Below are positions 3,669 through 46,319 of a DNA stretch of 64,000 nucleotides, piece by piece. How positions within the stretch are numbered: position 1 is the first letter of the stretch; each line of letters begins with the position of its first letter. The DNA is from Escherichia coli (lineage in GTDB: Bacteria > Pseudomonadota > Gammaproteobacteria > Enterobacterales > Enterobacteriaceae), in NCBI RefSeq assembly GCF_003334255.1, contig NZ_QOWU01000007.1; one strand, given 5' to 3'. The notes beneath the pieces are model-generated. The model had not been told where the DNA came from. It saw only the letters and a program-made list of their open reading frames with translations, and did no database searches. A program made the translations under genes and the position numbers.

Positions 3669-5099
3669 ATGATACGTAAGTCAGCTACAGGTGTTATTGT
3701 TGCGTTAGCCGTAATCTGGGGTGGTGGCACATGGTACACAGGTACGCAAATTCAGCCTGGTGTCGAAAAATTTATTAAAGATTTTAACGATGCTAAAAAG
3801 AAAGGTGAACATGCCTACGATATGACGTTAAGTTATCAAAATTTTGACAAAGGCTTTTTTAATTCCCGTTTTCAAATGCAAATGACATTCGATAACGGTG
3901 CACCCGATCTCAATATCAAGCCAGGCCAGAAAGTTGTATTTGATGTGGATGTTGAGCACGGTCCGTTGCCCATCACAATGTTAATGCATGGTAATGTCAT
4001 CCCAGCACTGGCAGCGGCAAAAGTGAACTTAGTGAATAATGAACTGACACAACCGCTATTTATCGCCGCGAAAAATAAATCGCCCGTGGAAGCGACATTG
4101 CGATTCGCGTTTGGTGGCTCATTCTCTACGACATTAGATGTTGCCCCTGCAGAGTATGGAAAGTTTTCTTTTGGTGAGGGCCAGTTTACTTTTAATGGTG
4201 ATGGTAGTTCATAGTCTAACCTGGATATTGAAGGCAAAGTCGAAGATATTGTTCTGCAATTATCACCAATGAACAAAGTAACGGCAAAAAGTTTTACCAT
4301 TGATTCTCTGGCGCGATTAGAAGAAAAGAAATTTCCGGTTGGTGAAAGCGAGTCGAAATTTAATCAGATTAACATTATCAATCACGGGGAAGACGTTGCC
4401 CAAATCGATGCTTTCGTTGCAAAAACCAGGCTGGATCGCGTTAAAGACAAAGATTATATCAATGTCAATCTCACCTACGAACTTGATAAGTTAACAAAAG
4501 GGAATCAGCAACTCGGTAGTGGTGAGTGGTCATTGATTGCTGAATCTATTGATCCCTCAGCAGTGCGCCAATTTATCATCCAGTATAACATTGCGATGCA
4601 GAAGCAGCTTGCTGCACACCCTGAGTTAGCAAACGATGAAGTTGCTCTGCAAGAAGTGAATGCTGCATTGTTCAAAGAGTATTTACCGTTATTACAAAAA
4701 AGTGAGCCGACCATTAAACAACCGGTAAGATGGAAGAACGCACTCGGCGAACTAAATGCCAATCTGGATATCAGTATTGCCGACCCAGCCAAATCTTCAT
4801 CATCCACAAACAAAGATATCAAATCGCTCAATTTTGATGTGAAGTTACCGCTTAATGTCGTCACAGAAACCGCAAAACAGCTTAATTTATCTGAAGGAAT
4901 GGATGCGGAAAAAGCGCAAAAGCAGGCTGATAAACAAATCAGCGGGATGATGACATTAGGTCAGATGTTTCAGTTAATCACGATTGACAACAATACCGCC
5001 TCGCTGCAGCTGCGTTATACACCGGGTAAAGTTGTTTTTAACGGACAGGAGATGAGCGAAGAAGAATTTATGTCTCGTGCCGGACGTTTTGTTCATTAA
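3669..5099 (+). pseudogene. yihF: DUF945-family protein YihF, reading frame interrupted by an in-frame TAG at 4212-4214
   Basis: Track ORFs 3627-4214 and 4269-5099 are in the same frame and separated only by one TAG (...FNGDGSS*SNLDIEGKVEDIVLQLSPMNKV...). Read through, the product from the Met at 3669 is 476 codons, the length I recall for intact YihF. No obvious SD precedes the ATG at 4269. Confidence 0.6.
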
Positions 5100-9222: not shown

Positions 9223-9368
9223 GATTCGCCTGAACATGCCTTTTTTCGTAAGTAAGCAACATAAGCTGTCACGTTTTGTGATGGCTATTAGAAATTCCTA
9301 TGCAACAACTGAAAAAAAATTACAAAAAGTGCTTTCTGAACTGAACAAAAAAGAGTAAAGTTAGTCGC

Positions 9369-9477
9369 GTAGGGTACAGAGGTAAGATGTTCTATCTTTC
9401 AGACCTTTTACTTCACGTAATCGGATTTGGCTGAATATTTTAGCCGCCCCAGTCAGTAATGACTGGGGCGTTTTTTA
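9369..9477 (+). ncRNA. spf: Spot 42 small regulatory RNA
   Basis: Exact match to the 109-nt Spot 42 sequence (GTAGGGTACAGAGGTAAGATGTTCTATCTTTCAGACC...GCCGCCCCAGTCAGTAATGACTGGGGCGTTTTTTA) including its intrinsic terminator. Confidence 0.95.
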
Positions 9478-10505: not shown

Positions 10506-10750
10506 ATAGAGCGAGGACGCTAACAGGAACAATGACTCAGGATGAGGGTCAGGAGCGCCAGGAGGCGAAGACAGAGGATTGTCAGGAAGACAAACGTCCG
10601 GAGACGTAATTAAACGGAAATGGAATCAACACGGATTGTTCCGGCTAAAGGAAAAACAGGGTGTGTTGGCGGCCTGCAAGGATTGTAAGACCCGTTAAGG
10701 GTTATGAGTCAGGAAAAAAGGCGACAGAGTAATCTGTCGCCTTTTTTCTT
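10506..10750 (+). ncRNA. csrC: CsrC small RNA (CsrA-sequestering)
   Basis: About 245 nt with many GGA motifs (AGGATGAGGGTCAGGAGCGCCAGGAGGCGAAGACAGAGGATTGTCAGGAAGACA...) ending in a strong terminator (GGCGACAGAGTAATCTGTCGCCTTTTTTCTT). Boundaries approximate. Confidence 0.85.
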
Positions 10751-10816
10751 TGCTTGCTTTCTGTTAGATTCCGCCGCAAATCTATACTGAATAAAACGGC
10801 TAAAAGACGAACCATT

Positions 10817-12995: not shown

Positions 12996-13103
12996 TTTTG
13001 TAGGCCGGATAAGGCGTTTACGCCGCATCAGGCATCTGAGCATGATGCCTGATGCGGCGCTGGTCGCGTCTTATCAGGCCTACGACTTTCTCCGCATCCG
13101 GCA
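12996..13103. repeat. REP/BIME cluster
   Basis: Repeated GTAGGCCGGATAAGGCGTTTACGCCGCATCAGGC-type palindromic units in alternating orientation. Confidence 0.85.
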
Positions 13104-13338: not shown

Positions 13339-14748
13339 TCACTCCATCCCCAGCTCTTTTAACTTACGCGTCAGGGTGTTGCGGCCCCAGCCGAGTAGCC
13401 GCGCCGCTTCCTGTTTATGCCCCTGCGTATGTCGCAACGCGGTCGTCAGTAACGTCCGCTCCAGCTCTGGCTGCGCTTCGGAAAGCAGATTTTGATGACC
13501 GGAACGCAGCGCTCTGTCTGCCCACTGCGCAAGAAGCGTCGCCCAGCTGTCCGGTTGCATTTGCGAAGTACTCTCCGCAACCGTTGATTCAAACAGTTCG
13601 CCGGGCAAATCCTGAATCAACACTTCCTGCCCGGCGGCCATCACCGTTAGCCAGCGGCAGGTGTTTTCCAGCTGGCGCACGTTGCCTGGCCACGCCAGAC
13701 GCGTCAGAGCAGCTTCGGTTTCCGGATGCAGTAACTTCGCTTCTACGCCCAGTTCGCGCGCGGCAACCTGTAAAAAATGGCGCGCCAGACGGGGAATATC
13801 TTCCCGACGTTCGCGCAGCGGCGGCAGATGAACGCGGATAACGTTCAGGCGGTGGAACAGATCCTCACGGAACTTACCTTCCTGCACTCGCTGTTCGAGA
13901 TTCTGGTGAGTGGCAGCGATAATCCGCACATCCACTTTCACCGGCGCATAGCCGCCAACGCGGTAAAACTGACCGTCTGCCAGCACGCGCAGCAAACGCG
14001 TCTGCACATCCAGCGGCATATCACCAATTTCGTCGAGGAATAATGTACCGCCATCGGCCTGTTCAAAACGCCCCTGACGAATGGTATTCGCGCCAGTAAA
14101 CGCGCCTTTCTCGTGGCCAAACAGTTCTGATTCGATCAAATCTTTTGGGATAGCTGCCATATTCAGCGCGATAAACGGCGCTTTGGCGCGCGGACTGTGG
14201 CGATGCAGGGCATGAGCGACCAGTTCTTTACCGGTGCCGGATTCGCCGTTAATCAGCACGCTAATAGAAGAACGCGAAAGCCGACCGATAATACGGAACA
14301 CGTCCTGCATGGCTGGCGCTTCGCCGATGATATCGGTCGTTGGGCCGTTAAGCTGAACATTACGCGGCTGCTGCTGTTCCTGGTAATGACTGATAGCGCG
14401 CTCAACCAGCGCCACTGCTTCGTCGATATCAAACGGTTTGGGCAGATAATCAAACGCCCCTTGTTGATAGGCGCTGACGGCAGCATCCAGATCGGAATGT
14501 GCGGTCATAATGATGACCGGAAGCATTGGATGGCGCTGTTTAATCTGCTTGAGCAGCGCCAGCCCGTCCATTCCCGGCATACGGATATCTGAAAGCAGCA
14601 CATCCGGCGTTTTGCTCGCCAGCGCCTCCAGCACTTCTGCGCCGTTCTCAAACGTCGTACAGGTTAAACCTGCCCCAGCGAGCGCACGTTCAAGCACCCA
14701 ACGGATGGAACTATCGTCATCGACTACCCAGACTATCCCTCGTTGCAT
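13339..14748 (-). CDS. glnG: Nitrogen regulation response regulator NtrC (sigma54-dependent activator)
   Basis: Track ORF trimmed to [23 protein letters not shown] (469 aa). Receiver domain, AAA+ sigma54-interaction domain ([14 protein letters not shown]) and C-terminal HTH. Confidence 0.97.
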
Positions 14749-14759
14749 AAACGTCACCT

Positions 14760-15809
14760 TTATTTCCTGATAGGCAGGTAAACCGAGAACTCGGTATGCC
14801 CTGGCCAACTGGTAAATTCAATTTTGCCTGAATGCTGATCAATCAAATTACGAGCGATGGATAAGCCAAGCCCGGTGCCACCTTCGCGGCCGCTGACCAT
14901 CGGGTAAAACAGCGTATCCTGCAAATGAGGCGGAATGCCCGGCCCGTTATCTTCCACATCAATCCGCGCCGCCAGCCGGTAGCGCTCGCCGTGTAAGGTC
15001 AGTTGAAACGCGGTGCGGGTACGCAGAATGATTTCACCGCCTTCCGGCCCCAGCGCCTGTAGCGCATTGCGCACAATATTCAGCAAGACCTGTTCAATTT
15101 GATCCGGGTCGTGCGCCAGTTCCGGTAGGCTGGGATCGTAATCACGAATCAACCGCACGTTGTCCGGCAGTTCCATCGACACCAGCGTTACCACGCGTTC
15201 AGCCACTTTGTGAATACTTTCGGTAACGCGCGTACCGGGCAGCTGCGGCCCCAACAGACGGTCGACCAGATTTCGCAGCCGGTCCGCCTGTTCGATAATC
15301 ACTTTGGTATATTCGAGTAGTGATGGGTCAGGTAACGCTTTGCTGAGCAGCTGCGCCGCGCCACGTAAACCGCCAAGCGGATTTTTAATCTCATGTGCCA
15401 GGCCGCGCACTAAATCACGGGCAGCAACCTGCTGGGCGTGCTGTAGCTGTTCCTGACTTAAGCGGCGCTGGTTATCCATCGGAGCCATCTCCAGCAGGAT
15501 CATGCCGTCCGGCATACGCTGGGCCGTCACAGAAAGGATATGCGAGCGCCCGTCGATGACCAGCGTCACTTCGTTATCGGTAAAACCTTGCCCCGCCTCC
15601 AGACTTTCTTGCATCAGCTCGATATTTAATGAGAAGTAGCTCAACAGTTCCGGTAACGGTGTACCAAACAATTTGCGGGAGCTTTGGGCGAGCAGTTGTT
15701 GCGCGGCAGGGTTGGCGTAATGGATCGCCAGGTTGTCATCGATTAACAAAATACTGTTAATCAGCGAGTTGAGGATCTGCCCAGCATCGGGCTGCGTGCC
15801 TGTTGCCAT
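14760..15809 (-). CDS. glnL: Nitrogen regulation sensor histidine kinase NtrB
   Basis: 349-aa ORF with H-box ([11 protein letters not shown]) and ATPase G-boxes (GTGLGLSIA). Confidence 0.97.
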
Positions 15810-15828
15810 AAAGCAGTCTCCTGAACAG

Positions 15829-15845
15829 GTTGCACCATTTTAGTG
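15829..15845. promoter_or_regulatory. NtrC-type dyad site (TGCACC-N5-AGTGCA) at the glnL promoter
   Basis: TGCACCATTTTAGTGCA dyad immediately upstream of the glnL start. Confidence 0.6.
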
Positions 15846-15959
15846 CATTATAGCTTTTTACGGATAAAAAGCGCGAAGCATCAGAGAATTGACGGAGAAA
15901 AAAGCCCATGCAGAGATGGGCTACAGATAGCTGACAAACTTCACGTTGGAGAGCGACTC

Positions 15960-16027
15960 ACCTGCTCCGGCCTACCACATCATCACCGTGTAGGCCGGAT
16001 AAGACGCATTTGCGTCGCATCCGGCGT
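15960..16027. repeat. REP elements in the glnA-glnL intergenic region
   Basis: GTGTAGGCCGGATAAGACGCATTTGCGTCGCATCCGGCG palindromic unit. Confidence 0.8.
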
Positions 16028-16094
16028 GATGTGCTTGCCACCGATCCCAGGCCTGCCAGAGACAGGCGAAAAGTTTCCACGGCAACTAAAACAC

Positions 16095-17504
16095 TTAGAC
16101 GCTGTAGTACAGCTCAAACTCTACCGGATGCGGAGTCATACGCACGCGGTCATCTTCTTCGCGACGCAGAGCGATGTACGCATCAATTGCTTCGTCAGTG
16201 AACACGCCACCGGCTTTCAGGAACTCGCGGTCCAGATCCAGTTCGTTCAGTGCTTCTTCCAGAGAGCCTGCAACCTGTGGGATCTCTTTCGCTTCTTCTG
16301 GCGGCAGGTCATACAGGTTTTTGTCCATGGCTTCGCCCGGATGGATCTTGTTCTTGATACCATCAAGACCGGCCATCAGCAGGGCAGCAAAGCACAGGTA
16401 CGGGTTAGCTGCCGGATCCGGGAAACGTACTTCGATACGACGTGCTTTCGGAGAAGAAACCACCGGAATACGGATAGACGCAGAACGGTTACGCGCAGAG
16501 TAAGCCAGCATTACCGGTGCTTCATAGCCCGGGACCAGACGCTTATAAGAGTTGGTGGTCGGGTTTGCCAGGGCGTTAATCGCTTTAGCGTGTTTGATTA
16601 CGCCGCCAATGTAGTACAGCGCCTGCTCAGACAGACCTGCGTATTTGTCGCCTGCGAACAGGTTAACGCCGTTTTTAGACAGAGACATGTGGCAGTGCAT
16701 ACCGGAGCCGTTATCACCGAACATCGGTTTTGGCATAAAGGTCGCGGTTTTACCGAAGCGGTGCGCTACGTTGTGCACAACATATTTGTAGATCTGAATT
16801 TCGTCAGCTTTTTTGGTCATGGTATTGAAGCGGGTAGCCACTTCGTTCTGACCAGCAGTCGCTACTTCGTGGTGATGGGCTTCAACCACCAGACCCATCT
16901 GTTCCATCACCAGACACATTTCAGAACGAATATCCTGAGCCGAGTCTACCGGTGGAACCGGGAAGTAACCGCCTTTCACTGCCGGACGGTGACCTTTGTT
17001 ACCACCTTCGTATTGGGTGGAGGAGTTCCATGCGCCTTCGATATCGTCGATAGCAACGTGGGAACCGGAGATAGATGATCCGAAACGGATGTCATCGAAC
17101 AGGAAGAATTCAGGTTCTGGCCCGAACAGTACGGTGTCGGCAATGCCAGTGGAACGCAGGTAATCTTCGGCGCGCTTCGCAATGGAGCGCGGGTCACGGT
17201 CATAGCCTTGCAGGGTGCCAGGTTCAAGGATGTCGCAACGGATAATCAGGGTGGAGTCGGCGAAGAACGGGTCAATCACTGCGGTGGATGCGTCTGGCAT
17301 CAGCACCATGTCGGACTCGTTAATGCCTTTCCAGCCGCCAATCGAGGAGCCGTCAAACATTTTGCCTTCTTCGAAGAATTCAGCATTCACCTGATGAGCA
17401 GGGATAGTGACGTGCTGTTCTTTACCTTTAGTATCGGTGAAGCGCAAATCAACAAACTTCACTTCGTGCTCGTTCAGCATCGTCAGTACGTGTTCAGCGG
17501 ACAT
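16095..17504 (-). CDS. glnA: Glutamine synthetase (type I)
   Basis: 469-aa ORF with GS signatures and the adenylylation-site region (...NLYDLPPEE...). Confidence 0.98.
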
Positions 17505-17588
17505 ACTTTAACTCTCCTGGATTGGTCATGGTCGTCGTGGTAACGAAATCTGCAATTATTTTGGCCGTGTCGCCGTAAAAAAGATAAA

Positions 17589-17606
17589 GCGAAATCTGTG
17601 CCAACT
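17589..17606 (-). promoter_or_regulatory. sigma54 (-24/-12) promoter glnAp2
   Basis: Reverse strand reads TTGGCACAGATTTCGCT (GG-N10-GC spacing), about 85 bp upstream of the glnA ATG. Confidence 0.8.
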
Positions 17607-17635
17607 TTTAAATTGCCCCTAAAAGGCGTTATCAT

Positions 17636-17727
17636 GCGCACCATCGTGCAAAAGGGCTGCACCACGATGTGAATGTTGCACCAATATAGTGCTTCAATGG
17701 AAACATTAAGCACCATGTTGGTGCAAT
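17636..17727. promoter_or_regulatory. NtrC enhancer sites upstream of glnA
   Basis: Multiple TGCACC-N5-GGTGCA-like dyads (GCACCATGTTGGTGCA, TTGCACCAATATAGTGC, TGCACCACGATG). Confidence 0.8.
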
Positions 17728-17876
17728 GACCTTTGGATAACCCTTTTTATGCTCCGTGAAAGCGATCACAAAGGGACTCTGCAATACTTGTTTGCGGAGG
17801 ATGTTTGTGATCCTGTTTTGTAGTGCGATTAATCCGTGTACAATAACGCGCTATTTCTAATGCCTGAGGCAAAGTT

Positions 17877-19700
17877 GTGATCGAAAAATTGCGTAATATC
17901 GCCATCATCGCGCACGTAGACCATGGTAAAACCACCCTGGTAGACAAGCTGCTCCAACAATCCGGTACGTTCGACTCTCGTGCCGAAACCCAAGAGCGCG
18001 TGATGGACTCCAACGATTTGGAGAAAGAGCGTGGGATTACCATCCTCGCGAAAAACACCGCTATCAAATGGAATGATTACCGTATCAACATCGTTGATAC
18101 CCCGGGGCACGCCGACTTCGGTGGTGAAGTTGAACGTGTAATGTCCATGGTAGACTCAGTGCTGCTGGTGGTTGACGCATTTGACGGCCCGATGCCGCAA
18201 ACGCGCTTCGTAACCAAAAAAGCGTTTGCTTACGGCCTGAAGCCGATTGTTGTTATCAACAAAGTTGACCGCCCTGGCGCGCGTCCTGATTGGGTTGTGG
18301 ATCAGGTATTCGATCTGTTCGTTAACCTCGACGCGACCGACGAGCAGCTGGACTTCCCGATCGTTTACGCTTCTGCGCTGAACGGTATCGCGGGTCTGGA
18401 CCACGAAGATATGGCGGAAGACATGACCCCGCTGTACCAGGCGATTGTTGACCACGTTCCTGCGCCGGACGTTGACCTTGACGGTCCGTTCCAGATGCAG
18501 ATTTCTCAGCTCGATTACAACAGCTATGTTGGCGTTATCGGCATTGGCCGCATCAAGCGCGGTAAAGTGAAGCCGAACCAGCAGGTCACTATCATCGATA
18601 GCGAAGGCAAAACCCGCAACGCGAAAGTCGGTAAAGTGCTGGGCCACCTCGGTCTGGAACGTATCGAAACCGATCTGGCGGAAGCTGGCGATATCGTTGC
18701 GATCACGGGCCTTGGCGAACTGAACATTTCTGACACCGTTTGCGACACGCAAAACGTTGAAGCGCTGCCGGCACTCTCCGTTGATGAGCCGACCGTTTCT
18801 ATGTTCTTCTGCGTTAACACCTCGCCGTTCTGCGGTAAAGAAGGTAAGTTCGTAACGTCTCGTCAGATCCTGGATCGTCTGAACAAAGAACTGGTACACA
18901 ACGTTGCGCTGCGCGTAGAAGAAACCGAAGACGCCGATGCGTTCCGCGTTTCTGGTCGTGGCGAACTGCACCTGTCTGTTCTGATCGAAAACATGCGTCG
19001 TGAAGGTTTCGAACTGGCGGTATCCCGTCCGAAAGTTATCTTCCGTGAAATCGACGGTCGTAAACAAGAGCCGTATGAAAACGTGACTCTGGACGTTGAA
19101 GAACAGCATCAGGGTTCTGTAATGCAGGCGCTGGGCGAACGTAAAGGCGACCTGAAAAACATGAATCCAGACGGTAAAGGCCGCGTACGTCTCGACTACG
19201 TGATCCCAAGCCGTGGTCTGATTGGCTTCCGTTCTGAGTTCATGACCATGACTTCCGGTACTGGTCTGCTGTACTCCACCTTCAGCCACTACGACGACGT
19301 ACGTCCGGGTGAAGTGGGTCAGCGTCAGAACGGCGTACTGATCTCTAACGGTCAGGGTAAAGCGGTCGCGTTCGCGCTGTTCGGTCTGCAGGATCGCGGT
19401 AAGCTGTTCCTCGGTCACGGTGCAGAAGTTTACGAAGGTCAGATTATCGGTATTCATAGCCGCTCTAACGACCTGACTGTAAACTGCCTGACCGGTAAGA
19501 AACTGACCAACATGCGTGCTTCCGGTACTGACGAAGCCGTTGTTCTGGTTCCGCCTATCCGCATGACTCTGGAACAAGCTCTGGAGTTCATCGATGATGA
19601 CGAACTGGTAGAAGTGACTCCGACCTCTATCCGTATTCGTAAACGTCACCTGACGGAAAACGATCGTCGCCGCGCCAACCGCGCACCGAAAGACGATTAA
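17877..19700 (+). CDS. typA: Ribosome-associated translational GTPase BipA/TypA
   Basis: 607-aa ORF with a GTG start. EF-G-like GTPase ([21 protein letters not shown]). Confidence 0.97.
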
Positions 19701-19716
19701 TTTCGTTTTTTAGTCA

Positions 19717-19751
19717 TAAAAAACCTGCCAGCGATGGCAGGTTTTTTTTTG
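19717..19751 (+). terminator. Rho-independent terminator after typA
   Basis: AAAAACCTGCCAGCGATGGCAGGTTTTTTTTTG. Confidence 0.85.
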
Positions 19752-19916
19752 CCTGTCGTGAGCGCACACCAATGCGAGTATCTCCCTTATAAGTCTGTGG
19801 TTACGTCAATAGAGAGCTTTGTCACAATTATCTGCAAAGTCATACGCCGTTAATTGCTTTCTTTTTTGGCGTAAGCGTAAGATGCTTCATCTGGTTTAAA
19901 CCAAAAGGATTAAACA

Positions 19917-42241: not shown

Positions 42242-45200
42242 TTACACCTTTTCCACATTCACAAGGAAGGACTTAAACTCCGGCGTCTGCGTGTTCGCAT
42301 CACCAACGAATGGCGTTAAAGTATTGGCAATAAAGCCTTTTTTAGCTACGCCTTCATAGCCCCAGTGAATCGGAATACCGATGGTATCGATATCTTTGCC
42401 GTTCGCTTTCAGCGTGCGAATACGTTTGGTCACCACCGCTTTGGCTTTGATATAGCCACGGTTGGAGGAGACTTTCACGGTATCGCCCTGGGCAATGCCA
42501 AGTTTATTCGCCAGCGACTCCCCGATTTCCACAAACTGCTCTGGCTGCAAAATCGCGTTCAACAGCGCGTGTTTGGTCCAGTAGTGGAAGTGCTCGGTCA
42601 GACGATAGGTGGTTCCGACATACGGGAACTTATCGGCTTTACCCAATGCTTCGGCGTCGTCTTTAAAGATACGTGCAGCCGGGTTCGAGATAACGTTTGG
42701 ATGCAGCGGGTTAGTTCCCAGCGGCGTTTCAAACGGCTCGTAGTGTTCCGGGAACGGACCTTCCGCCATCTTATCGAGGGCAAACAGACGCCCCATGCCT
42801 TCCTGCTGCATGATAAACGGCCCGACGCCGCTACCCGGAGGCGCTGCGCTGTAGTCCGGAATATCCCAGCCGGTCCACTTAGTGCCGTCCCATTTCAGCA
42901 ACTGACGCTTCGGATCCCACGGGTTACCCTGCGGATCTGCGGAGGCGCGGTTATACAGAATGCGGCGGTTAAGCGGCCATGCCCATGCCCAGCCCAGCGT
43001 GTTACCGAGGCCAGACGGATCGGCGTTATCACGGCGTGCCATCTGGTTGCCTTCCGGCGTCCAGCTACCGGCGAAAATCCAGCAGCCACAGGAGGTTGTA
43101 CCGTCATCGCGCAATTGGGCGAACGAACTAAGTTGTTGGCCTTTCTTGACGATAACCGCACCGGTTGCCGGATCGGTAATATCGGCCAGCGCCTTACCGT
43201 TGCTCTCCATCGCCACTTCTTCTGAAGATGGCTCATGCGGAATGGCGTAGTTCCATGTCATGTTGAGCACCTGGTCCGGGTTCGCGCCACCCTGTTCGGC
43301 ATACATCTTGCGCAAGCGCAGGAAGATACCGGAGAGGATCTCGCCGTCAGTCAGCGCAATCCCCGGGGCGTCCGCACCTTTCCAGTGCCACTGTAACCAG
43401 CGACCTGAGTTAACGATAGAACCGTTCTCTTCCGCGAAGCAGGTCGATGGCAGACGGAACACTTCGGTCTGGATCTTCGACGAGTCAACTTCGTTCAGCT
43501 CACCGTGGTTCTGCCAGAAGTTAGAGGTTTCAGTGTTCAGTGGGTCGATGGTGACGAGGAACTTCAGTTTCGACAGACAACCGATCACTTTGTTTTTGTT
43601 CGGGAATGAGGCAACAGGGTTAAAGCCCTGGCAGATATAGCCATTGACCTTGCCCTCTTTCATCATCTCGAAGTATTGCAGGACGTCGTAGCCTTTATCC
43701 CACTTCGGCAACCAGTCAAAGCCCCAGCTATTTTCCGCCGTCGCTTTATCACCAAAGAAGGCCTTCATCATAGAGACGAAGAATTTCGGGTAGTTGCCCC
43801 AGTAGTTTACCTGGCCTTCCAGCAGCGGTTTTGGCGTGTTGGCGGTAAGGTAGGTTTGCAGATCGGTCTGCTTCTCGCTTGGCAGCGTCATGTAACCTGG
43901 CAGGCTCTGCGACAGCAGCCCCAGGTCCGTCAGCCCCTGAATATTGGAGTGACCGCGCAGGGCGTTAACGCCGCCGCCTGCCATCCCCATATTGCCGAGC
44001 AGCAGCTGGATCATCGCCATCGTACGAATGTTTTGCGCACCAACGGAGTGTTGCGTCCAGCCGAGGGCATACAGGAACGAGGCAGTTTTATCGTGAGCAC
44101 TGGTTTCTGCGATGTATTCGCAGACTTTCAGGAACGCGTCTTTTGGCGTACCACAGATGTTTTCAACCACATCTGGCGTGTAGCGGGAAACGTGCTGTTT
44201 CAGCAAGTTCCACACGCAGCGCGGATGTTGCAGCGTGGTATCGCGTTTGGCGAAGCCGTTTTCGTCCAGTTCATAAGTCCAGGAGGATTTATCGTACTTG
44301 CGTTTTTCCGCGTCGTAGCCGGTGAACAGGCCATCTTCAAAGCCGTAATCCTCACGCACGATCAGGCTGGCGTTGGTATAGGCTTCGGTGTATTCGCGGT
44401 TGAATTTTTCATTGTTCAGCAGGTACAGCAATACGCCTGACAGGAAAGCAATGTCAGTACCGGAACGAATAGGGGCATAGTAGTCAGCTACCGCCGCCGT
44501 ACGCGTAAAGCGAGGATCGATCACAATCAGCTTCGCGCCGTTGTGAATTTTGGCTTCCATCGCCCAGCGGAACCCGACCGGGTGAGCTTCAGCGGCATTA
44601 CCGCCCATCACCACGACGAGGTTGGCGTTCTTGATGTCGACCCAGTGGTTGGTCATCGCACCGCGACCAAATGTTGGAGCAAGACTTGCTACCGTTGGTC
44701 CGTGTCAGACACGCGCCTGGTTGTCGACCGCGAGCATACCCAGCGCGCGGGAGAATTTTTGCGTTAAATAGCCGGTTTCGTTACTCGACGCGGAAGCACA
44801 CAGCATCCCGGTGGAGAGCCAGCGGTTAACAGTCACGCCTTCGGCGTTTTGCGCAATGTAGTTAGCATCGCGGTCTTCTTTCATCAGTTTGGCGATGCGA
44901 TCAAACGCCTCTTCCCAACTGATTTGCTGCCATTTATCAGAACCTGGCGCACGGTATTCCGGAAACTTCAGACGGCTTTCGGAGTGGATGAAATCCACCA
45001 GGCCAGCGCCTTTCGGACAAAGTGCACCGCGGTTGACCGGGTGATCCGGATCGCCTTCGATATGGAAGATAGATGCTTTGGCGTTTTTTGCTCCGTCACC
45101 GAGGCTGTACATCAACAGCCCACAGCCTACGGAACAATAGGTGCAGGTATTACGGGTTTCGCGGGTGCGCAGCAGTTTATACTGCCGGGTTTCCGCGAGT

Positions 45201-45485: not shown

Positions 45486-46319
45486 GTGAAAAAAACACAG
45501 CGAAAAGAAATCGAAAATGTGACAAATATCACAGGTGTTCGTCAAATTGAGTTATGGCGGCGTGATGATTTACAACACCCACGGTTAGATGAGGTCGCGG
45601 AAGAAGTTCCCGTTGCGCTGGTCTACAACGGCATTTCGCATGTGGTGATGATGGCGTCGCCCAAAGACCTTGAGTACTTTGCGCTCGGTTTTTCGCTTTC
45701 CGAGGGGATTATCGAAAGTCCGCGCGATATCTTCGGCATGGATGTCGTTCCTTCCTGTAATGGTCTTGAAGTACAAATTGAGCTTTCCAGCCGCCGCTTT
45801 ATGGGGTTGAAGGAGCGCCGCCGGGCGCTGGCGGGACGTACGGGCTGTGGCGTATGCGGCGTGGAGCAACTTAATGACATCGGAAAACCGGTGCAGCCGC
45901 TACCGTTCACCCAGACGTTTGATCTCAACAAACTGGATGATGCATTACGTCATCTCAACGATTTTCAGCCAGTGGGGCAACTGACTGGTTGTACTCACGC
46001 CGCTGCCTGGATGTTGCCATCTGGCGAACTGGTCGGCGGGCATGAAGACGTGGGTCGCCATGTGGCGCTGGACAAACTGTTAGGCCGCCGGTCACAAGAA
46101 GGGGAAAGCTGGCAGCAAGGTGCGGTACTGGTTTCCAGTCGTGCCAGTTATGAAATGGTGCAAAAGTCGGCGATGTGCGGCGTAGAGATTTTGTTTGCGG
46201 TGTCTGCCGCGACCACGCTTGCTGTAGAAGTGGCTGAGCGCTGTAATCTGACACTGGTAGGTTTTTGTAAACCGGGTCGGGCAACGGTTTATACCCATCC
46301 GCAGCGTTTGAGCAATTAA
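45486..46319 (+). CDS. fdhD: Formate dehydrogenase sulfurtransferase/accessory protein FdhD
   Basis: 277-aa ORF, divergent from fdoGHI. Confidence 0.95.

Follow-up and report, generated by a model that had tools for sequence, protein, structure and literature searches.

The glnA-typA spacer of a 64-kb Escherichia coli window matches the K-12 nitrogen-regulated glnALG control region

The glnA control region is a long-studied nitrogen-shortage switch for glutamine synthetase, already known and already annotated. In E. coli K-12, glnAp2 is transcribed by the sigma54 holoenzyme, and its NtrC sites have been published as centred at -140 and -108; the glnAp1 promoter, 115 bp farther up than glnAp2, has a 'classical CRP-binding site' upstream of it, and CRP recruited at -51.5 has been reported to antagonise glnAp2 (PMC1865078). 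Of the NtrC sites, 1 and 2 have been described as high-affinity and 3 and 4 as low-affinity 'governor' sites, in an account that also sets out three feedback loops of NtrC (PMC3870243). NtrC also represses glnLp (PMC9731577, PMC3870243). By gSELEX, an NtrC peak of 97% and a peak of the RpoN holoenzyme were both found in the glnA/typA spacer (PMC8743547).

We analysed a 64,000-nucleotide stretch of E. coli DNA, referred to here as the window. Sequence comparison showed that it matches E. coli K-12 MG1655 at 100% identity, and the glnA-typA region was found in 5426 of the 5426 complete E. coli genomes searched. Positions 17505-17876 are the glnA-typA(bipA) intergenic region and read base for base as in K-12. 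The identities of glnG, glnL, glnA and typA follow the RefSeq annotation of the identical sequence, which places the cognate enhancer-binding protein NtrC, together with NtrB, in the same operon as glnA.

13339..14748, minus strand: glnG (NtrC, the enhancer-binding protein for these sites), RefSeq annotation of the identical sequence
14760-15809: glnL (NtrB), RefSeq annotation of the identical sequence

We put the probability that this locus is the control region of the glnALG operon, operating as the literature describes, at roughly 97%, with nothing of weight speaking against it. The observations made here are sequence identity, the presence and positions of the motifs, their conservation and their fixed geometry. 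An earlier sequence-only reading of this DNA had held that known biology fills the non-coding space; this was right, as glnAp2 and the NtrC enhancer have been experimentally defined in the identical K-12 sequence.

That reading had also placed a -24/-12 element on the reverse strand between glnA and typA, and the element is present there as the first of the following features.

17604..17588, minus strand: glnAp2 sigma54 promoter, TTGGCACAGATTTCGCT, a motif match of the form TTGGCAC-N5-TCGCT
17505..17577, minus strand: glnA 5' leader from glnAp2, 73 nt, with its start inferred from the -12/-24 element
17518..17512, minus strand: Shine-Dalgarno sequence AGGAGAG of glnA, from sequence reading

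The promoter carries GG at 17602/17601 (-25/-24) and GC at 17590/17589 (-13/-12). The 16-mer TGGCACAGATTTCGCT at 17603..17588 differs at one position from TGGCAC-N5-TTGCW, its GG and GC are exactly 10 bp apart, and the positions of these two dinucleotides, taken by themselves, would put the glnAp2 +1 at 17577. Each of the 111 Enterobacterales regions has GG-N10-GC upstream of glnA, 52 of them with the same 16-mer, and conservation of the sigma54 element reached 0.91 in the non-redundant set.

Upstream of this promoter lie the NtrC sites, with centres given relative to the glnAp2 start.

17709..17725: NtrC site 1, high affinity, AGCACCATGTTGGTGCA, centre -140, 1/12 mismatch to TGCACC-N5-GGTGCA
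17677..17693: NtrC site 2, high affinity, TGCACCAATATAGTGCT, centre -108, 2 mismatches to TGCACC-N5-GGTGCA
17658..17674: NtrC site 3, low affinity, centre -89, 5 mismatches as a full dyad
17635..17651: NtrC site 4, low affinity, degenerate, centre near -66, a differently spaced GCAC-N4-GTGC
17614..17630: NtrC-like site, weakest and degenerate, centre near -45, 4 mismatches

The computed centres of the two strong dyads coincide exactly with the published -140 and -108, and, being 32 bp (three helical turns) apart, the dyads lie on one face of the DNA. Site 3 has a single good half, TGGTGCA on the glnA strand at 17664..17658 (TGCACCA on the plus strand), which is conserved at 95% or more in 54 non-redundant species. 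The weak NtrC-like elements, sites 3 to 5, have 4-5 mismatches each, and conservation at site 4 is moderate (0.62); its exact centre is presumably that given by Reitzer and Magasanik and by Atkinson et al. 2002. The weak sites at -89, -66 and -45 are the counterparts of the low-affinity 'governor' sites already known, the one at -45 (17614..17630) being what we take to be the element called 'site 5'. The -51.5 position of CRP falls in the same 17614..17630 region. The claim of at least three dyads was therefore generous: two are full dyads, and the remainder are one half-site and two degenerate sites. Their placement 40-140 bp further upstream was roughly right, since the distance from the -24 element up to the sites is 10-121 bp and their centres span -45 to -140.

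Binding, looping, activation and repression, together with GlnZ function, are all drawn from the literature. On this account, NtrC would be phosphorylated by NtrB under nitrogen limitation, and NtrC-P would bind cooperatively at the two strong dyads, -140 and -108. It would oligomerise at these strong sites and, with the intervening DNA looped, would open the closed complex of the sigma54 holoenzyme at glnAp2 (start ~17577) through ATP hydrolysis. At very high NtrC-P, the weak sites at -89, -66 and -45, which lie between enhancer and promoter, would limit output.

The enhancer also coincides with a second promoter and lies next to its CRP site.

17692..17726, minus strand: glnAp1, weak sigma70 promoter, position from PMC1865078, hexamers inferred from sequence
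17755..17770: CRP site for glnAp1, CGTGAAAGCGATCACA, 1 mismatch to TGTGA-N6-TCACA

As read from the sequence, glnAp1 has a likely -35 TTGCAC (17726..17721) and a likely -10 TTCCAT (17702..17697), with a start at ~17692. The CRP site, strongly conserved across species, has its centre at -70.5 relative to glnAp1 and at -185.5 relative to glnAp2. NtrC site 1 overlaps the glnAp1 -35 region and site 2 covers its start region; because the strong sites overlap both, NtrC is expected to repress glnAp1, and this weak, CRP-activated promoter would be switched off by NtrC at sites 1 and 2. A scan for sigma70 consensus promoters detected neither glnAp1 nor glnLp, and the failure to flag glnAp1 fits a weak, CRP-dependent promoter. 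The sole match of that scan was TTTAAA-17-TATCAT at 17607-17635 on the plus strand. The sequence-only reading had made no mention of glnAp1, its CRP site, sites 1 and 2 as glnAp1 operators, or the RNA family ES222 considered below.

A further NtrC-like dyad precedes glnL.

15831..15847: NtrC operator at glnLp, TGCACCATTTTAGTGCA, 1 mismatch to TGCACC-N5-GGTGCA

A dyad had been reported at the glnL start, at 15829-15845. It is real, but it lies at 15831-15847, and it stops 21 nt short of the glnL ATG (15809) rather than sitting at the start. The dyad abuts the -10 hexamer TATAAT (15852..15847, minus strand) and has one base in common with it, the last T of the hexamer being the first T of the dyad. 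In 73 of 81 species the glnL start has a dyad 12-23 nt ahead of it, and CTATAA or CTATAC usually comes before the dyad. Through the dyad abutting the glnLp -10, NtrC would repress this internal glnLG promoter.

The geometry of the region was compared in the glnA upstream regions of 111 Enterobacterales species, which are related, so that counts are not independent events. A MAFFT alignment was used, as a promoter-anchored ungapped alignment blurred the upstream sites through 1-bp offsets. In 81 species the dyads are centred at -140/-108, and a further 13 have them at -141/-109, so about 94 of 111 keep the geometry; sites 1 and 2 are spaced 32 bp apart in 97 of the 103 species. Conservation is 0.79-0.85 for the strong NtrC sites, 0.48 for the spacer between them and 0.47 for the leader, and the GCAC and GGTGC halves of the dyads show little or no variation among 52 species. 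The glnA leader occurs in 36 distinct lengths, from 45 to 259 nt, among the Enterobacterales species. This comparison makes a small quantitative addition: across Enterobacterales neither the -140/-108 geometry nor the 32-bp spacing shifts by more than 1 bp, while leader length varies about six-fold.

A candidate RNA of the opposite strand coincides with the same DNA.

17688..17795, plus strand (typA strand): Rfam RF02755 ES222, candidate enterobacterial sRNA, 135.3 bits vs gathering score 62

The full-length match runs across NtrC sites 1 and 2 as well as glnAp1 and its CRP site; ES222 was also matched in Citrobacter, Enterobacter, Klebsiella and Salmonella, and may be part of a typA leader. 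A literature search returned no relevant paper on ES222, typA and glnA entries were not found in the TSS supplement of PMC3415461, and the typA promoter is unmentioned in PMC3946193.

One explanation, compatible with the nitrogen-control reading and laid over it, is that a typA-strand transcript starts inside the enhancer, so that occupancy by NtrC and CRP also sets transcription in the typA direction. We regard this as unlikely. It is favoured by the ES222 5' end, which is placed back to back with the start of glnAp1 (~17692), and by the 5' hairpin, which is modestly more stable as plus-strand RNA in 17 of 28 Enterobacteriaceae as against 5 as minus-strand RNA (Wilcoxon p = 0.004; the species are not independent). 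In addition, the NtrC and RpoN peaks may have typA as a divergent target, according to PMC8743547. Against it, the promoter scan and sequence reading gave no convincing sigma70 -35/-10 pair on the plus strand upstream of 17688: TATAGT at 17685-17690 is a good -10, without a -35 or an extended -10, and the start that it implies lies downstream of the Rfam 5' end. NC_000913.3 carries no annotation of ES222, and its structural support is weak. The covariation score is 0.157 vs 0.138 in shuffles, with 2 of 500 shuffles reaching 0.157, and the 5' hairpin is supported within Enterobacteriaceae only. Less likely still is the specific version in which ES222, or a long typA/bipA leader, starts in the enhancer with a 5' hairpin built from the spacer, and NtrC-P and CRP occupancy gates typA-direction transcription. 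If true, expression of BipA (a ribosome-assembly GTPase), or else of an independent sRNA, would in Enterobacteriaceae be coupled to the nitrogen and carbon status of the cell.

A more radical alternative makes the palindromes stems of a structured RNA in the typA direction (ES222 or a typA leader) and not NtrC or CRP sites at all. The Rfam match at 135 bits, with its counterparts in four other Enterobacteriaceae genera, speaks for it, as do a plus-strand RNA fold z of -2.5 and a hairpin formed from the spacer between sites 2 and 1, which shows compensatory changes in many Enterobacteriaceae and a G.U to A.C ratio of 61:14 in its helix. However, both the dyad halves (GCAC, GGTGC) and those of the CRP site keep their sequence unchanged instead of co-varying, which is the signature of protein recognition. 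The dyads are also kept in Yersinia, Serratia, Pectobacterium and others without an ES222 match, where the hairpin is no better than shuffled. Moreover, in the Rfam ES222 structure only 63% of cells pair and the longest helix (helix 3) reaches 44%, and over the whole region the plus-strand RNA is no more stable than the minus-strand RNA. Given half-sites that are invariant and not co-varying, an RNA-structure origin of the dyads was rejected as very improbable. Most of the conservation of ES222 is explained by the protein-binding DNA elements with which it coincides.

Returning to the nitrogen-control reading, we compared the motif counts with chance expectation in the 64-kb window. For the sigma54 consensus at no more than 1 mismatch, 3 matches were observed vs 3.7 expected, showing no enrichment. 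NtrC dyads at no more than 2 mismatches numbered 4 vs 3.3 expected; at no more than 1 mismatch there were 2 vs 0.2 expected, both in the gln operon. Paired dyads (no more than 2 mismatches, within 100 bp of each other) arose in 3 of 200 simulated windows. At loose thresholds the counts of the consensus motif scan were near chance. As the sigma54 and loose NtrC counts are at chance level, the case is not based on a motif scan alone; the excess over chance lies in the arrangement and the cross-species conservation, and in no single motif score. That the matches are chance resemblance, with another role for the intergenic space, is the least credible explanation: sigma54 matches, and NtrC matches at up to 2-3 mismatches, are indeed about as frequent as chance predicts, but both dyads with at most 1 mismatch in 64 kb stand at gln operon promoters, the close dyad pair is rare in the simulations, the elements and their spacing are kept over 111 species while flanks and leader length drift, and the sequence is that of the experimentally dissected K-12 region, for which published footprints and genetics, together with conservation, already refute chance.

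Downstream of glnA, the window contains a described small RNA.

15898..16091, minus strand: GlnZ, sRNA from the glnA 3'UTR, ncRNA glnZ b4836 in NC_000913.3

GlnZ lies between the glnA stop codon and the intrinsic terminator upstream of glnLp, in a 3'UTR of 197 nt, the length published for the K-12 type; 85-nt or 230-nt versions occur in other E. coli lineages (PMC9731577). It has an internal REP element and a fold z of -3.2, and its 3' end is the glnA intrinsic terminator, with a stem at 15922..15903 and a U-tract to 15898. Forms of 213, 194 and 174 nt have been reported (bioRxiv 10.1101/2022.04.01.486790). GlnZ is described as accumulating in processed form in association with Hfq and as repressing sucA among other targets (PMC9731577; bioRxiv 10.1101/2022.04.01.486790), and here too it would arise by processing of the glnA 3'UTR. 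An sRNA from this 3'UTR had been suggested from the sequence, and one exists; the 3'UTR itself ends at 15898, not at 15810, and 15810-15897 is the glnL promoter and leader. A GlnZ family is absent from Rfam 15.

The value of the locus is that of a positive control, not a discovery: the archetypal bacterial enhancer-dependent promoter was recognised from raw sequence, and an sRNA that does exist was predicted. Compared with the K-12 glnAp1/glnAp2 region (Reitzer and Magasanik; Ninfa et al.; Atkinson et al. 2002), the sequence is the same, with no difference; the window and the K-12 archetype share their sigma54 element, their CRP site, a pair of NtrC sites centred at -140 and -108, and the 115-bp distance from glnAp1 to glnAp2. 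The copy of GlnZ is likewise no different from that of K-12 (Walling et al. 2022; Miyakoshi et al. 2022), and Ysr49, a Yersinia RNA, occupies the same position after glnA. Among the other NtrC-activated sigma54 promoters of E. coli, glnHp2, glnK, nac and astC likewise combine GG-N10-GC with upstream 17-bp TGCACC-N5-GGTGCA dyads as enhancer, and the tandem architecture of glnHp1p2 is very similar to that of glnAp1/glnAp2 (PMC3870243). In contrast to these four, glnAp2 does not require an IHF site, its strong sites also serve as operators for a sigma70 promoter that overlaps them, and low-affinity governor sites lie between its enhancer and the promoter.

Between 15700 and 18000 the sequence matches E. 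coli K-12 MG1655 at 100% identity, and this segment was found in all 5426 of the 5426 complete E. coli genomes searched. The plus strand of the window is the plus strand of NC_000913.3 (offset 4,040,530), and gene names follow the RefSeq annotation of the identical sequence. From these gene positions, the interval 17504-17877 is the divergent glnA-typA intergenic region, for which a sequence-only reading had proposed a sigma54 promoter and NtrC enhancer; this interpretation is supported by the motif positions, conserved geometry, K-12 identity and published sites. The features of the region are as follows.

13339-14748, minus strand: glnG (NtrC), RefSeq annotation
14760-15809, minus strand: glnL (NtrB), RefSeq annotation
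15831-15847: NtrC dyad TGCACCATTTTAGTGCA at glnL, ending 21 nt upstream of the glnL ATG
16095-17504, minus strand: glnA, RefSeq annotation
17604..17588, minus strand: sigma54 element TTGGCACAGATTTCGCT, sequence scan
17614-17630: degenerate site centred at -45, 4-5 mismatches as a full dyad (scan), which we take to be the fifth NtrC site
about 17635-17651: NtrC site 4, centred at about -66, GCAC-N4-GTGC with other spacing, 4-5 mismatches
17658-17674: NtrC site 3, centred at -89, a single good half, 4-5 mismatches as a full dyad (scan)
17677-17693: NtrC site 2, 2 mismatches (dyad scan)
17709-17725: NtrC site 1, 1 mismatch of 12 (dyad scan)
17688-17795, plus (typA) strand: Rfam ES222 (RF02755), a candidate sRNA, 135 bits (gathering score, 62)
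17877-19700, plus strand: typA/bipA, RefSeq annotation

Elsewhere in the window, Spot 42 (9359-9477, plus), CsrC (10506-10759, plus), the fdoG SECIS element (44652-44710, minus) and a 5S rRNA truncated by the left window edge (1-104, plus) lie at positions consistent with the MG1655 map.

The claimed -24/-12 element was found on the minus strand as TTGGCACAGATTTCGCT. With its GG set at -25/-24 and GC at -13/-12, the inferred glnAp2 start is 17577, giving a glnA leader of 73 nt to the ATG. Scanning for TGCACC-N5-GGTGCA (12 scored bases) yielded two good dyads, sites 1 and 2, whose centres lie at exactly -140 and -108 from this start. These are the positions of the NtrC-P enhancer sites in PMC1865078, an agreement that independently checks the sites as well as the start. 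The weak elements at -89, about -66 and -45 match the low-affinity "governor" sites of the literature (PMC3870243). The proposal of at least three dyads was thus generous but right in spirit, two being good (1 and 2 mismatches) and the others poor (4-5 mismatches).

Single motifs were not beyond chance. In the window, the sigma54 consensus with at most 1 mismatch occurred 3 times against 3.7 expected, and NtrC dyads with at most 2 mismatches 4 times against 3.3; dyads with at most 1 mismatch numbered 2 against 0.2 expected. Both dyads with at most 1 mismatch lie at gln operon promoters, and three of the four with at most 2 mismatches lie within the gln locus; 3 of 200 simulated windows contained a pair of the latter kind inside 100 bp. 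The comparative evidence is decisive.

Enterobacterales genomes were searched with a degenerate DNA pattern for the GlnA N-terminus, which gave 120 loci; the 110 with at least 420 nt upstream, plus the window, formed a comparison set of 111 regions. A GG-N10-GC element was present upstream of glnA in 111/111, and the dyad centres fell at -140/-108 in 81 species and -141/-109 in 13. The distance between the two dyads was 32 bp in 97 of 103 species, three helical turns, which places them on one DNA face, while the glnA leader took 36 distinct lengths (45 to 259 nt). The compared species are related and the counts not independent; despite this kinship, a fixed dyad geometry beside freely varying neighbour lengths clearly indicates constraint. 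Among the retrieved loci (L002-L121), the long leaders, of 130-260 nt, belong to Yersinia, Rahnella and a small number of further genera.

Scored against E. coli in a MAFFT alignment cut to 54 sequences with less than 90% pairwise identity, conservation was 0.91 for the sigma54 element, 0.85 for NtrC site 2, 0.79 for site 1, 0.48 for the spacer between sites 1 and 2, and 0.47 for the glnA leader. The TGGTGCA half of site 3 (17658-17664, glnA strand, -87..-81) was at least 95% conserved in this non-redundant set of 54 Enterobacterales, a level equal to that of the strong sites; its partner half was not conserved.

The weak promoter glnAp1 lies 115 bp upstream of glnAp2 (about 17692 in the window) and is CRP-activated and NtrC-blocked (PMC1865078). 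It was not flagged by a consensus sigma70 scan; by our own assignment its hexamers are likely TTGCAC (17726..17721) and TTCCAT (17702..17697). NtrC sites 1 and 2 overlap its -35 and start, explaining their dual role. Strongly conserved in the same alignment is TGTGATCGCTTTCACG (17755-17770, glnA strand), which departs from the CRP core at 1 position and is centred at -185.5 from glnAp2, or -70.5 from glnAp1. The scan flagged a single sigma70-like match in the region, TTTAAA-17-TATCAT (17607-17635, plus), a candidate oriented to typA whose span overlaps the stretch separating the glnAp2 core from NtrC site 4. The 60 bp adjoining typA (17817-17877; conservation 0.81) presumably hold its core promoter and leader; a published typA transcription start was not located in our literature search. 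An Rfam STnc370 match (19685-19753, plus; 55.6 bits, just above the gathering score of 54) runs across the typA stop codon at 19700 into downstream sequence, and may represent a typA 3'UTR-derived RNA.

Separately, a perfect CRP-core palindrome, TGTGACAAATATCACA (45518-45533, plus), lies about 30 nt inside an ORF starting at 45486, by position presumably fdhD, and adjoins the fdoG-fdhD divergent spacer. An RpoN holoenzyme gSELEX peak is reported in that spacer (PMC8743547).

At glnL, the second dyad that had been noted is real, although its coordinates were 2 bases off. Its sequence on the glnL strand is TGCACTAAAATGGTGCA, and it shares its first T with the end of a TATAAT hexamer (15852..15847), which is a repressor position. 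In 73 of 81 species the glnL dyad is present, 12-23 nt ahead of the glnL start. The glnA 3'UTR had been drawn at 15810-16094, which overshoots: 15810-15897 is glnL promoter and leader. An intrinsic terminator at 15922..15903, with its U-tract to 15898, gives a 3'UTR of 197 nt, exactly the "K-12 type" of PMC9731577. The suggested 3'UTR-derived sRNA is annotated in NC_000913.3 as the ncRNA glnZ (b4836; 4,056,428-4,056,621, window 15898-16091), a family absent from Rfam 15. GlnZ has forms of 213, 194 and 174 nt, contains an internal REP that folds into a long stem, is expressed in an NtrC-dependent manner, and represses sucA, aceE and other targets (Walling et al., bioRxiv 10.1101/2022.04.01.486790); the predicted fold of the 197-nt 3'UTR shows this stem (z = -3.2). 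REP-type elements matching Rfam naRNA4 occur inside GlnZ (15993-16053; 30 bits, below threshold) and outside the gln 3'UTR (13003-13080, plus, and 62609-62686, minus; 75-79 bits, above threshold). In Yersinia pestis (locus L067), Rfam Ysr49 (3863-3986, plus; 160 bits) begins directly after the glnA stop codon, making it the positional counterpart of GlnZ under another name.

The ES222 match takes in half of NtrC site 2, the whole of site 1, glnAp1 and the CRP site. A rival reading of the palindromes mainly as stems of a structured RNA on the typA strand, and not as protein sites, is very unlikely. ES222 is without annotation in NC_000913.3, and no paper on it was found in the literature searched. 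It also scored above threshold in Citrobacter, Enterobacter, Klebsiella and Salmonella, but not in Pluralibacter, Serratia, Yersinia, Pectobacterium, Hafnia or Rahnella; among the genera tested, only close Enterobacteriaceae gave such matches. Support for the Rfam structure is weak: across a 52-species alignment, 63% of cells were paired (44% in the longest helix), with a covariation score of 0.157 against 0.138 in shuffles. Its first helix, formed by the 15-nt spacer between sites 2 and 1 (hairpin 17689-17713, plus), fares somewhat better, with compensatory changes in many Enterobacteriaceae (e.g. CAAUG/CAUUA, CAGUG/CACUG, UGCG/CGUU), stability above spacer-shuffled controls in 14/52 species, all among the first 28 (Enterobacteriaceae-like) rows, and a G.U to A.C ratio of 61:14 favouring the plus strand, on which it is slightly stabler as RNA than on the minus strand (p = 0.004; species not independent). 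However, the hairpin is absent in the more distant families aligned, the whole region is not stabler on the plus strand, no convincing ES222 promoter was found, and the half-sites of the dyads and of the CRP site do not co-vary but keep an invariant sequence, the mark of protein recognition. TATAGT (17685-17690, plus), the inner part of site 2 in Enterobacteriaceae, is a near-consensus -10 hexamer; distant families have TATGGT or TTTGGT, nearer the NtrC consensus. Its distribution coincides with that of ES222 matches, and a -35 partner is not evident. A divergent transcript that starts within the enhancer and ties transcription towards typA to NtrC and CRP is improbable, and we treat ES222 as a possible overlay that does not compete with the sigma54 promoter and NtrC enhancer.

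Sequence identity, motif positions, conservation and fixed geometry come from our analysis, and the regulatory steps from the literature. According to the latter, nitrogen limitation leads NtrB to phosphorylate NtrC. NtrC-P oligomerises on sites 1 and 2, reaches the closed complex of sigma54 at glnAp2 by looping and drives open-complex formation there. Its binding also represses glnAp1 and glnLp, expression is capped by the low-affinity sites, and CRP activates glnAp1 and antagonises glnAp2 from about -51.5. All features of the glnAp2/NtrC enhancer that can be tested in silico were found here, with the biochemical ones resting on the cited papers. The glnA control region is already known biology, and with respect to the glnAp2/NtrC enhancer of E. 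coli K-12 it is the archetype itself, not a relative.
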